Shown here: piece after piece, positions 6,709-11,129 of the stretch
How the letters are laid out: each line of letters opens with the position of its first letter
Position numbering within the stretch: the stretch's first letter is position 1
Origin: a virus
Taxonomy: Duplodnaviria > Caudoviricetes
Length of the DNA: 46,475 nucleotides
Virus record (IMG/VR): IMGVR_UViG_3300049893_001524
Location: 1 to 46,475 of that record
Direction: 5' to 3' (one strand)
Notes under the pieces: model-generated
The model's database searches: none
The model's input: only the letters and a program-made list of their open reading frames with translations
What the model was told of the DNA's origin: nothing
Position numbers and translations under genes: made by a program

Positions 6709-9234
6709 CTAGTCCCATTGACCAACGCTGACCATCGAAGTGCTTCCCAGGCGGCGAATCCTGAAATACGAGCCGATAGAGACCACGGCAGCAGCAGCGG
6801 TTTGCAGCAAAATACGCGGGATGACTGTACCGCCAGCGGTTACTTCAAGCGTTCCCTCCAGCTTAAAGAACGCTGCCGTGGCCGTTCCGGTCGTCACAAG
6901 CGGAGCTGCGACCAGCGTGGCGTCTACTGAGTAGCTGCCGGACAAGTTTCCGGTGGCGGCGTCTGCGGCGACATCGCGACCGAAGCCATGCCATAGGAAT
7001 GCTCCCATAGTCGCCGTGCCGCCGAAGTCGAAGGTCGCATTTCCTGTCGTGCCGCTCATCGAGGTCAGTGCGATCAGCGCATCGAATTGGTAGACGCCGG
7101 TCTCTAACGTGATCTGGCCATTTGTCGGGCTGTCGAAAATCGCCTGCGCGCCGGTTTGCGACGTCAGGGTCTCCGCGGCGTCGGCGCGAATGATGTGCTC
7201 GATCGGAACGACGCCGCGGTTGCCGGCATCCGTTGTCATGTAGAAACAGTTGTCGTCGAGCTCGACGGCGCCGTCTTCTGCCGTCGTCAACAGCGGGCCG
7301 ACGGCAAATTTTGGCCAGCTATCGGCGGTCGCCGATCCCGCAGCGAAGCGCGTGCGCCCAGGAACGTTGAGCTGTCCAGTGCTTTCATCGAACGTAAATA
7401 ACGAACTGGCGTCGAATACACCGCCGTTGTTGTACTGCACCCATGTCGACGATCCCGCGACTGAACCCGTGGGCCCAGTCGGCCCCGTGGGGCCCGGCGG
7501 CCCGTCTGGACCCGTGGGACCAAGATCACCGGCGCGGACGAACTCGACGTATATGACGTCGCTATTCGCGAATGGCTCCGCTGTGCCGAGTTCCTGAACA
7601 CCGGCCACCGTAATCTTGCGGTATCCCGTTGCCGTGGTGACCGCTGAGATCGTGAATATCTGCCCGCTGATGACGCCGGACGACGAGTATTTCAGGACGT
7701 AGAGGTGGCCCTCTACCGTGCCCGTGCCGTCGTCGAACGAATCCAGCCAGGTCGTGACCGTGTTGCCGTCGTTGTCGAGGAGGTCGATGAAAATCTGCGT
7801 CGTCGCCGATTGGTCGGCGTTGTTGAAGCGCAGCACACCATTGCCGGGATCGGCATCCGTGGTCGTCGTGCTGAACACGTACTGCAGGGCGCCGCCCGGT
7901 CTGCCAATGGATCCCGTCGGCCCAGTGGGCCCAGTAGGTCCGTTCGGCCCTGGCGGTCCATTCGGACCAGCCGGCCCCGTGCCACCGGGAGGCCCGCCGG
8001 GACCAGTAGGGCCAGGCGGACCAGTAGGACCAGCCGGCCCGAGGATGTTGCCTTGCGACGTCCAGGTGCCACCGATCTTTTCGTAGATTTCTCCGGTTCC
8101 GGTCGCCAACGCATGATCGCCGTTGACTCCGGTCGGCGCGCTCGGCACTCCGGTATCACTGAACCACACGGCTCCCGCGGTCCCCGTTGGGCCCGTCGGG
8201 CCAGGAGGCCCTGCGGGACCAGCCGGACCCGTCGGGCCAGGCGGCCCTGTGGGACCTGCCCCGCCAGCAGGACCGCTTGGCCCAGTCGGACCAGGCGGCC
8301 CTGTGGGGCCGAGAATGTTGCCCTGCGATGTCCAGGATCCCGTGATCTTCTCGTATATCTCGCCGGTCGCGGTGTCGAGGGCGTGGTCACCGTTGACGCC
8401 TGTCGGTGCACTCGGCGCGCCTGACTGGCTAAACCACACAGAACCAGCCGTGCCCGCTGGGCCAGGCGGGCCAGTTCCGCCAGCCGGACCAGCCGGGCCA
8501 GCCGGGCCAGTTGGCCCAGGCGGGCCGGCAGCGCCATCGGCTCCTGGGGGCCCAGTGGGTCCGGTGCTTCCAGATGGGCCCGGCGGTCCTGCTGGACCCG
8601 TAGGGCCTGGAGGCCCGCCAGGATCTCCAGTCGGACCTGTGGGACCAGGCGGACCAGCGGAACCCGATGGGCCGGTTGGGCCTGGCGGGCCCGTCGTACC
8701 AGCCGGACCAGTCGGACCAGCGGGGCCCGTTGGGCCAGGAGATCCAGCCGGACCCGGAGGTCCGGCGCTTCCAGACGGTCCGGTAGCGCCGGCCGGCCCG
8801 GCGGGACCAGCGGCGCCGGCGGGCCCCGGGGGGCCAACAGGGCCGCCGCCAGGGCCGGTCGGTCCCGTGGGGCCAGGCGGCCCTTGCATCATGTCGCCAT
8901 CGGTTGACACCAGGCTGATGCTGATCTTCGTGCCGCCAGGCGCGCTTTGCGGTGTGAACTCGAGCTGTTCGTAGAGGCCGACGAAGTTCAGCGACTGGTT
9001 GCCGGCGTTGAGCGGTACGGCTTCAAATGACGCTGCGATGATGACGGCTGCGTGCTTGGCGCCAGTCGGTACGCCGCGGATGCGCAGCGTTCCGCTGCCC
9101 GCGGCCGGCGTGATCGCAATAGCCAACTGGTGCGCGGCGGCCTGCGCGTGGCGCTCGATGCGAACGACCTTGGCGCCACCGTCGAGGTTGTACTCTGTGA
9201 GCAGGTCTCCAGTTGTGACTATGGTCTCGCGCAT
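6709..9234 (-). CDS. Collagen-like tail fibre protein (841 aa)
   Basis: Four Gly-Pro-X tracts separated by two near-identical ~45-aa knob domains and a beta domain; fibre-type motif [11 protein letters not shown]-terminal beta-rich tip. Confidence 0.85.
8038..8448 (-). repeat. Two ~140-nt knob-domain repeats (8038-8178 and 8308-8448) in the fibre gene
   Basis: G[SA][37 protein letters not shown] twice, 270 nt apart, mostly synonymous differences. Confidence 0.9.
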
Positions 9235-9237
9235 TGC

Positions 9238-9873
9238 CTACCTGAATGGACTGCCGTGAACCCAGGCGACCAGAGAGTACCGCGTGCCTCGCGTGATCGC
9301 CGTCACGCAATGCGGAGTCCAGGACGGAAAAAGAACGGCAGCGCCACGCTCAGCGTAGATGCCGTTCAATATCTTCGGGCCTGGATCGCAAATCATCAAA
9401 TTGCAGCCGTTGTAGTCGCCGGGATCTGAGAGCTGCGCGACGACGGAAATCTTGCGTCGCGACATGTAGTGCGCGCCGAAATCCTGGTGCCAGTTGTAGT
9501 GCCCGGGCGTCTCGTCCTTGGTTTCAGCGGCCTCGTACTTCAAGAACTGGAATTCCTCGAGGAGGCCGCTGAGCTCGAACCTGTAGTCCTCGTCGTTGCA
9601 CGCCTGTACTTTGGTGTGCACGCGCTCGTAGATCCACGACGTCTTCTGCGTGTGCGCGAGAGTCGCAACCTGGACGTGGCGATAATTGGGGTCGACTCGC
9701 GACTGGTCCGGGTTTCCAATGGCGCCGTACTGCAGGTTCAGCGACTTGCCGAGCTCGACGATGGCGTCGCACTCCACCGCGGAGAACATGCGGTTGCCAC
9801 CGCTGTACTGGTAGTGCGTGTTGAAATGCGCGCTGCGCATCTGTGGCTGAATGAAATATCCTGTTGAGTTCAT
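9238..9873 (-). CDS. 2OG-Fe(II) dioxygenase, prolyl-hydroxylase-like (PKHD/P4Hc-type)
   Basis: GHYNW-H-Q-D (HxD), RKISVVAQL, FPSWTP-H-CV (distal His), G-T-R-Y-S (RxS 2OG-binding motif). Confidence 0.9.
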   Translation of the reverse strand: MNSTGYFIQPQMRSAHFNTHYQYSGGNRMFSAVECDAIVELGKSLNLQYGAIGNPDQSRVDPNYRHVQVATLAHTQKTSWIYERVHTKVQACNDEDYRFELSGLLEEFQFLKYEAAETKDETPGHYNWHQDFGAHYMSRRKISVVAQLSDPGDYNGCNLMICDPGPKILNGIYAERGAAVLFPSWTPHCVTAITRGTRYSLVAWVHGSPFR

Positions 9874-9881
9874 GGGTTCCT

Positions 9882-10658
9882 CTAATCGGTGTTGTTGTAC
9901 GTGAATTCTGCCGTTGCGACCTCGGTGTACGAAAAGTTCCCGAGGGCGTCCGTAACTTTACACTTGAAGGTGACGCTTTCCGTCTGGTTGTTGCAGTTGT
10001 CAGTGCGTCTGATGATCATCGAGCTCGCATTGACCGGATTCTCGAATGTTCCGGCGTTCTGCGAGACAAACTCCCACGCATAGCTCGGCGTGCCTGCGGC
10101 TCCGCCCGTGTACGTTGCCGACACGGTTGGGCTGAGCAGCGAGCGGGAAGCCCCTGGCGGCGCCGTCACCGATTTCGTTACCAAGGACGGAGACACTCCG
10201 CCGTTGATGCCGGCCGGCCCAGGCGGACCAGGCGGTCCAGTGGGCCCGGTGGGCCCGGGCGGCGACGGCCCCGTGGGTCCAGTTGGTCCCGTTGGCCCGG
10301 TGCGCAGCGGCCCCGATGGGCCCGGCGATCCCGTGGGGCCGGGCGCACCGACTGGAGACGGCCCAGTTGGCCCTGTTGGTCCTGCTGGCCCAGTTGGCCC
10401 CTGCGGACCAGTAGGACCAGTAGGACCAGTTGGCCCATGCGGTGACGGCGCCGGCCCAGGAGACGAACCCTGCGGGCCAGGAGGCCCTGGCGGTCCAGGA
10501 GGTCCCTGAGGTCCCGGTGTTGTATTCGCTGGCCCCGGAGATCCTGTCAGCCCGGGCGGGCCGACAGGAGACGCGCCAACGGGCCCCGTAGGCCCGGGCG
10601 CTCCAGCGGCTCCGGGCGACCCGGGCGGGAACAGGAAGAACTGAGAGAGCACGCTCAC
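9882..10658 (-). CDS. Collagen-like protein with C-terminal Ig-like beta domain (258 aa)
   Basis: GTG start; ~140 aa interrupted Gly-Pro-X; C-terminal domain with [13 protein letters not shown]...FKCKVTDA. Confidence 0.8.
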
Positions 10659-10661
10659 GAG

Positions 10662-11129
10662 TTACCCCGGCGGGCCAGCGGGTCCGGCGGGGCCAGTCGG
10701 TCCGGTCGGCCCGGTTGGGCCCGGCGCACCGCTCGGTCCCGTCGGCCCAGTCGGTCCCGTGGGGCCCAGCGGTCCCGGAGGTCCGGGCGGTCCTGCAGGT
10801 CCTGCGGGGCCCGTGGGTCCCGTGGCGCCACTCGGTCCCGTCGGTCCCGTGGTTCCCGTCGCGCCAGTCGGACCCGGAGGTCCTGGCGGACCCGTAGGCC
10901 CAGGCGGTCCGATCGTTCCCGGCGCGCCAGGAGATCCGTTGACTCCCGTCGGTCCCGGCGGCCCAGACGGGCCCAGGGCGCCGGGCGGACCATTGGATCC
11001 CTGCGGGCCCTGCGGACCCGTGGGACCCGTGGGACCCGTGGGACCGGCGGGGCCCGGCGATCCCGGAGATCCTGGCGGGCCACTGGATCCAGTCGGGCCG
11101 ACAACGCGAAGCGTGAGGAAGTTGCTCAT
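10662..11129 (-). CDS. Almost pure collagen-like protein (155 aa)
   Basis: 10-aa leader then 48 uninterrupted Gly-X-Y triplets; no C-terminal domain. Confidence 0.8.

Follow-up and report, generated by a model that had tools for sequence, protein, structure and literature searches.

A Phage Fibre Module Encoding Nearly Charge-Free Collagens and a Predicted Prolyl 4-Hydroxylase

Organization of the Collagen/Oxygenase Cassette

The 46,475-nt linear record of an uncultured Caudoviricetes virus (IMG/VR IMGVR_UViG_3300049893_001524, positions 1 to 46,475; hereafter, the window) is estimated to represent 77% of its genome. On the minus strand, it carries three collagen genes together with a gene for a 2-oxoglutarate (2OG)-Fe(II) dioxygenase. 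We suggest that these genes belong to the fibre module of a phage whose portal and adaptor proteins are of the SU10 type, and in which a monomeric, predicted prolyl 4-hydroxylase (P4H) on balance probably hydroxylates proline residues of the co-encoded collagens before the triple helix is wound. The collagen/oxygenase cassette itself is real and conserved. The following features make up the module:

6709..9234, minus strand: collagen fibre A, 841 aa; N-terminal jelly-roll, collagen segments and a 249-aa C-terminal domain
9238..9873, minus strand: 2OG-Fe(II) dioxygenase, 211 aa, with a prolyl 4-hydroxylase fold in the AlphaFold model (PF13640, phrog_61, 'PKHD-type')
9882..10658, minus strand: collagen chain B, 258 aa; interrupted collagen between an N-terminal peptide and a C-terminal domain of ~100 aa
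10662-11129, minus strand: collagen chain C, 155 aa; 48 uninterrupted triplets behind a 10-residue N-terminal peptide, with no C-terminal domain
11131..11874, minus strand: tail-fibre anchor, 247 aa, with a C-terminal homologue of the XD1 domain of CBA120 TSP4 and T4 gp10

Along the minus strand, the 899-aa tail protein is followed by the anchor, chain C, chain B, the oxygenase, fibre A and the lysis genes. The gap between the 247-aa anchor gene and the 155-aa collagen is 1 nt, that between chains C and B is 3 nt, and the oxygenase is separated by 8 nt from the 258-aa collagen and by 3 nt from the 841-aa collagen. The gap sizes (3 and 8 nt), the triplet and residue counts and the oxygenase motifs given in a preliminary description of this DNA were all reproduced on recount. 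All three collagens matched PF01391 over its cut-off. Their reading frames are kept in relatives whose enzymes are 43–51% identical, and are therefore not chance frames. No promoter-like sites were seen, and terminator-like sites stood at chance level.

Family, Fold and Active Site of the Oxygenase

The oxygenase matched PF13640 (E 3e-12, over the cut-off) and phrog_61 (E 2e-28) and has the double-stranded beta-helix, the HxD...H motif and the basic 2OG-binding residue of the 2OG-Fe(II) dioxygenase superfamily. The iron ligands are H129, D131 (in H129-Q-D131) and H188, and the 2OG arginine is R198 (in R198-Y-S); all four are invariant across 62 aligned sequences. Residues R65, Y126, R140 and W204 are predicted to contact the substrate.

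An AlphaFold model built from 62 sequences (predicted local distance difference test score 94.9) was most similar to the P. putida P4H PPHD (4iw3; Z 21.5, root-mean-square deviation (rmsd) 2.6 over 179 residues). It was followed by the hypoxia-inducible factor (HIF) and algal P4Hs (Z about 19–20; algal P4H 19.4) and by vCPH of PBCV-1 (Z 18.3). Ranks 1–29 were all P4H entries, the prolyl 3-hydroxylase (P3H) OGFOD1 appearing first at rank 30 (Z 17.1) and PiuC at rank 36 (Z 16.9). The position of Y126, three residues ahead of the first iron His, is that of Tyr140 in the algal P4H 2jig, and R140 aligns with Arg161 of the same enzyme; Y126 was placed by its distance to the iron His, since HMMER misregistered the loop, and the 2jig numbering offset was likewise read from the iron His. 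This substrate-binding Tyr/Arg pair (Tyr310/Tyr140 and Arg322/Arg161) is described as common to all P4Hs, and P3Hs have Leu instead of Tyr (PMC4396695). Both residues of the pair occur in 21/21 rows of the clade that contains the enzyme, and all catalytic residues are invariant in the same rows. Judging by the model, the oxygenase is of the P4H structural type, so the earlier proposal of a prolyl-hydroxylase-like enzyme is borne out at the structural level, and prolyl hydroxylation is very probably its activity.

Two narrower assignments were rejected. The best sequence matches were to PiuC/YbiX (profile E 1e-13), from which the 'PKHD-type' label originates. However, the enzyme scored 28–50 bits against NCBIfam cut-offs of 143–399 (50 against 143 bits for PiuC/YbiX), and the PiuC-type chain 3dkq, with its lower Z, has Phe and Thr where the phage enzyme has the Tyr and Arg of P4Hs. 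Collagen-type P4Hs (C-P4Hs) bind 2OG through Lys (Lys511) and have an alpha subunit with dimerisation and peptide-binding domains that forms a tetramer with protein disulfide isomerase (PMC9676403), whereas the phage oxygenase is a 211-aa single domain with Arg198 as its predicted 2OG residue. It may work like a C-P4H, yet it is not a member of that group.

The closest folds, PPHD and HIF PHD2 (Z about 19 for the latter), share the Tyr/Arg pair and the 2OG Arg with the phage enzyme but act on EF-Tu and HIF rather than on collagen, are ~20% identical to it and are not accompanied by fibre genes. PBCV-1 A085R/vCPH (5c5t) is likewise a virus-encoded single-domain P4H fold (rmsd 2.6 over 165 residues), although from an algal virus rather than a phage and with 12–15% identity; it has been employed to hydroxylate recombinant collagen (PMC12408790).

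Linkage of the Oxygenase Clade to Collagen Genes

In total, 221 homologous loci were fetched (cited below by L numbers); the best 80 were kept from each of the two largest scans, and some rows are near-duplicates. A quick tree of 101 rows placed the oxygenase in a 21-row clade (Shimodaira–Hasegawa-like approximate likelihood-ratio test 98). Every clade locus with at least 2 kb upstream had collagen within 3 kb (12/12), as did 16/21 over all clade rows; of the remaining five rows, L163 starts within a collagen, and four have 67–421 bases upstream. Outside the clade, collagen was near 8/97 viral or metagenome loci and 0/54 genome contigs. Linkage of homologues to collagen genes had been set beforehand as the test on which the idea could fail, and the close clade passed it. 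The clade adjoins collagen in three genome settings, namely podophages, a UvsX/helicase-bearing phage (L088, L093, L094) and L109, with the enzyme directly after B, after A, or between them. The whole oxygenase family is much larger, comprising 171 phage records, mostly of cyanophages, and about 3000 IMG/VR stretches.

The large tail protein upstream of the anchor served as a lineage marker:

11867..14566, minus strand: 899-aa tail protein, nozzle-like by position, following the SU10-type adaptor
14567-15277: SU10-type adaptor, assigned on the basis of PF24175

Among 27 loci found with this nozzle protein, the enzyme was carried by 4/4 distinct collagen-bearing phages with downstream room and by 0/9 distinct collagen-free phages with room, the rest being duplicates or incomplete. 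Five collagen-free nozzle-relative records, one of them 100% complete, were searched whole, and no enzyme was found. The collagen-bearing podophages form one lineage of 10 rows, inside which L557 and L568 lack both collagen and enzyme.

The reverse comparison started from collagens picked by DNA pattern (80 loci with flanks per scan, of 138 and 122, duplicates removed). A family member was found within 3 kb in 11/49 Gly-Pro-Thr contigs and 8/42 Gly-Pro-Pro contigs (two of them clade members), the count taking in contigs with either an enzyme or 3 kb of downstream sequence, a rule that slightly favours matches. Tail loci picked by the anchor domain carried a family member in 2/45 cases (p = 0.015 against Gly-Pro-Thr and 0.14 against Gly-Pro-Pro). 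The oxygenase family is thus enriched near such collagens, though most collagens do without it. In addition, contig L385, with a Y-position proline (Y-Pro) frequency of 0.29, has a family member 5.6 kb away.

Several findings weigh against collagen as the substrate and leave room for an alternative, in which the substrate is a small molecule, a different phage protein or a protein of the host (e.g., a translation factor) and the enzyme has been inherited along with the fibre cassette. PPHD, the closest structure, was solved with EF-Tu. The family is widespread, and collagen is absent from the vicinity of 89/97 non-clade homologues from viruses or metagenomes. The signature residues are present in 196–201 of 201 homologues outside the clade, most of them without collagen, a count in which the search patterns favoured some of these residues; being family-wide, they therefore indicate prolyl hydroxylation and not collagen as the substrate. 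The podophage cases, as a single lineage, represent few independent events and not thirteen. From the collagen side, 38/49 Gly-Pro-Thr and 34/42 Gly-Pro-Pro contigs lack a family member within 3 kb, nor was any other oxygenase family found among 95 neighbours of 22 enzyme-free Y-Pro collagen loci. However, collagen adjoins the clade enzyme in each of three genome settings despite changes in gene order, L557 and L568 lack enzyme and collagen together, and the anchor-domain tail loci carry the family more rarely than the Gly-Pro-Thr collagens do. We consider a non-collagen substrate rather unlikely and action on the co-encoded collagens probable.

Composition of the Collagens and Proline at the Y Position

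The collagen of chain C is a single run of 48 Gly-X-Y triplets with Thr at 18 and Pro at 14 Y places, Pro at 35 X places and no D, E, K or R. The other two collagens had been described as nearly charge-free, and this is confirmed by charged residues at 0/82 X/Y places of the triplet runs in the 258-aa chain and at 5/180 in the 841-aa protein. Over all three collagens, Pro is much commoner at X than at Y (0.73 vs. 0.25).

In the clade collagens, Y-Pro had a median of 0.19 (16 loci), compared with 0.00 in the Gly-Pro-Thr phage collagen set, and was raised in 14/16 loci (0.13–0.30). The five clade loci that hold the (GPT)4 search pattern showed Y-Pro of 0.15–0.30, while 6/67 of the (GPT)4 pattern set reached 0.1 or more. 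The 15 high-GC (guanine + cytosine) members of that set had a median of 0.01, so GC content is not supported as the cause of the clade values.

Other features of composition speak against a need for hydroxyproline (Hyp) at Y. At loci L087 and L092, the enzyme is present although Y-Pro is 0.03 and 0.05, and other oxygenase clades adjoin collagens with Y-Pro near 0. Y-Pro did not differ with the presence of the enzyme in two pattern-selected sets (p = 0.22 and 0.62); the expectation that it would track an adjacent homologue across phages is not supported by these sets. A charge-free, Thr-rich collagen composition proved to be common in phages (about 3200 IMG/VR stretches carry the pattern), so that lack of charge alone implies no need for Hyp. 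Furthermore, at 34–35% of residues, the Pro content of the B and C helices exceeds the imino acid figure given for human collagen (>20%; PMC3368898); these helices may consequently fold unmodified. A further reservation concerns glycosylation: no glycosyltransferase (GT) was found among the 138 window open reading frames (ORFs) scanned, but the window is an estimated 77% of its genome, and the host may supply such enzymes.

The constant feature of the clade collagens is X-Pro with Y-Thr, and Gly-Pro-Thr is their commonest triplet (0.15–0.48). Gly-Hyp-Thr peptides fold, and a 2011 work by Okuyama is said, by its title, to concern stabilisation by Hyp-Thr-Gly. The peptide (Gly-Pro-Thr)10 folds only when it carries glycans and is otherwise a random coil (PMC11923368). 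Searches for GT2, GT1, GT60 and GT61 gave no match in 4 phage records, one of them 99% complete, although the GT60 search gave no match in any control genome either. Taken together with the behaviour of the peptide, this leaves room for Hyp at Y, Hyp at X or no modification.

Alternatively, the enzyme could act mainly on X-Pro to give Gly-Hyp-Thr, or Hyp could be a handle for host glycosylation or surface masking, and the fibres would then lack animal-like Y-Hyp. The prevalence of Gly-Pro-Thr agrees with this, as do the near absence of Y-Pro in L087 and L092 and the collagens beside the other family clades. In addition, the B. anthracis P4H hydroxylates both X and Y, with Y favoured (PMC8968730), and earthworm collagen is high in X-Hyp (PMC8233474). 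However, X-Hyp shows generally no correlation with stability (PMC8233474), Y-Pro is raised in most clade loci, and no glycosyltransferase was found in the 4 phage records. We regard this alternative as improbable. The preliminary description's view of the fibres as Hyp collagen is partly supported, by the P4H-type fold, the clade linkage and the clade Y-Pro enrichment, but not by a general Y-Pro correlation. That Y-Hyp is needed for fibre stability is conceivable but somewhat doubtful.

Two groups of loci deserve separate mention. Two further oxygenase groups stand beside Thr-rich collagens with Y-Pro near 0 (L035, L051, L072, L079, L226, L228, L243, L285 and others), their rows having been chosen for having collagen. 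Locus L409 (5164-11355) has three tandem collagens of similar size, with 560 triplets in all and Y-Pro of 0.37; a GT1 gene is nearby, and no oxygenase was found there.

Matched Chains B and C and Their Putative Anchor

The spans from Met to the last Gly are 155–205 residues in chain C and 149–198 in chain B, with differences of 0 to -7 within a locus (r = 0.994, n = 9 loci). The two lengths change together, through about 155, 160, 171 and 205 residues. By permutation, such a match arises in 2/720 arrangements over six enzyme subclades and in 1/24 over four length classes. Distinct chains of matched helix length, as expected of a heterotrimeric collagen, are therefore present over the 9 loci; this match is a new observation of the present analysis. 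Recent duplication was rejected as its source, since C–B identity within a locus (0.53–0.68) is no higher than that of each C to the C of the window (0.53–0.67), although this check is weak because identities were computed on low-complexity sequence. The matched lengths suggest that B and C co-assemble, most simply as a mixed helix with one tip.

Chain C ends in Gly followed by the stop codon, the same layout being found in 9/9 compared loci, and is likely the filler chain of the fibre; chain B is likely the tip-bearing chain. The C-terminal domain of B gave ESM Atlas scores of up to 0.87 with PKD clusters, below the threshold of 0.9, and found no match among solved structures; a PKD/Ig-like tip is a lead only.

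The anchor C-terminal domain matches 7rfv residues 88–177 (E 3e-10) and gp10 (E 3e-6), with the XD1 limits taken from PMC8825819. The gene after an XD1-type domain opens with MSx[LFVIYM]xx[FL] in 49/56 readable control loci, and B and C fit this pattern. From these sequences, the anchor is a putative docking site for the N-terminal peptides of B and C. As a wider observation (loci L482-L547), this motif is possibly a general fibre-docking tag.

The mixed helix has its difficulties. Chain B collagen is interrupted many times, unlike that of chain C; the third chain of L093, at 158 residues, falls short of the 190 of its two companions; and XD1 is regarded in PMC8825819 as a spacer to which no trimeric partner binds in either TSP4 or gp10. 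B and C might instead be separate homotrimers, side by side or on different anchor sites, with the enzyme serving mainly as a binding chaperone or virion part. The interruptions confined to B would suit this, equal length would also fit a two-helix bundle, and prokaryotic collagens are described as homotrimers (PMC8968730). Nevertheless, the catalytic residues are invariant throughout the clade, and chain C lacks both a trimerisation domain and a tip domain, so we consider this combination very improbable. For a B/C heterotrimer as such, we see the prospects as evenly balanced.

In the UvsX/helicase phage, three tandem collagens of ~190 helix residues precede the clade enzyme (L088 2951-5922, L093 3-2527, L094 1-1498); these genes are a candidate three-chain collagen.

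Comparison with Known Systems

The combination of collagen and hydroxylase has precedents in a prediction for bacterial operons (PMC2938197), the viral P4H of PBCV-1 and the P4H of B. anthracis. Iyer et al. (2010) proposed collagen-like and tail-collar proteins as substrates of neighbouring co-encoded 2OG dioxygenases in bacterial operons (PMC2938197). That prediction concerns other enzyme families, whereas the present phage module has a single P4H-type enzyme, for which Pfam revealed no partner of the kind described there. In the open-access main texts, we found no report of a phage hydroxylating its own collagen or of a phage collagen heterotrimer; the supplement to PMC2938197, outside this literature scope, may list such neighbourhoods.

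EPclA/B (PMC3368898) and Scl2 also form Gly-X-Y fibres with X-Pro, and EPclA/B were proposed as phage tail proteins. These are charged (22–30%), Y-Pro-poor homotrimers with their own trimerisation domain and without a hydroxylase. The phage collagens here, in contrast, have charge near 0 and Y-Pro of 0.25, and chain C has no terminal domain. According to reviews, prokaryotic collagens are homotrimers, mostly without Hyp (PMC8968730, PMC3368898). FibU of phage 80alpha is collagen-like by prediction only (PMC7048315). The anchor C-terminal domain is homologous to the XD1 module of CBA120 TSP4 and T4 gp9-gp10; unlike in TSP4 and gp10, XD1 here closes the protein, and the genes that come next are separate and begin with a short conserved peptide at the N-terminus.

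Other Features of the Window

Based on profile scans, the window encodes an SU10-type portal (PF23899), the SU10-type adaptor (PF24175), a capsid protein, a terminase and lysis genes. Fibre A is a multi-domain fibre in which two 42-aa repeats and a single spacer domain divide the collagen into segments. It is variable among relatives, and its N-domain is also found without collagen. The model of this domain (pLDDT 86.7) gave tied and middling matches to XepA (Z 10.3), YomS (10.2) and the KHP40 cement protein (9.6); fibre A is possibly a separate fibre, perhaps on the head.

A 76-aa ORF (31407-31637, minus strand), far from the tail module, combines a hydrophobic stretch with a charged run of 9 collagen triplets and is thus a charge-type collagen within the same genome as the charge-free fibres. 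A peptide deformylase gene (PF01327) lies at 30913-31410 (minus strand). The terminase-to-portal interval (21531-27683, minus strand) contains several genes without a family match and one with a weak FN3 match. The window was traced to a single sequencing run, labelled freshwater sediment and possibly its source, and no RNA dataset was listed as containing it. At 11015-11056, inside chain C, contigs of run X1 break and repeat, which may reflect a strain variant or an assembly branch.

Proposed Route of Fibre Maturation and Its Implications

The following route can be proposed for hydroxylation of the co-encoded collagens. At a late stage of infection, the enzyme would be co-produced with the anchor, chains C and B and fibre A, in keeping with the gaps of 1–8 nt. 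The enzyme, with Fe(II), O2 and 2-oxoglutarate, would act on the unfolded chains, with Y-Pro as the likeliest main site and the X-position Pro of Gly-Pro-Thr as a probable second site; the latter would account for relatives almost without Y-Pro. The trimeric anchor would then capture three N-terminal peptides and thereby fix the register, and the length-matched C and B would form one mixed helix, e.g., with C and B in a 2:1 ratio, bearing a single tip domain. Finally, Hyp would stiffen this helix without salt bridges and, in these genomes, without a detected glycosyltransferase. The full scheme, in which the phage makes an animal-style heterotrimeric collagen that is registered by the anchor, carries one receptor-binding tip and is stabilised by Hyp from its own monomeric enzyme, is speculative and, taken as a whole, unlikely.

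Phage 2OG-Fe(II) oxygenases are common and are usually classed as metabolic extras without a substrate. The cassette offers a small test case consisting of one 211-aa enzyme, two short chains and one anchor. If the proposal is true, one oxygenase clade would gain a substrate, Hyp would occur in a phage structural protein, and oxygen and iron would be required for fibre maturation. Gly-Hyp-Thr might be a further product of the enzyme, and this would account for the folding of the numerous charge-free Gly-Pro-Thr collagens of phages. For recombinant collagen production in bacteria, both a collagen-adapted single-subunit P4H and a chain-selection device are wanting (PMC8968730), and the module would potentially supply such a P4H together with a natural device for chain selection.

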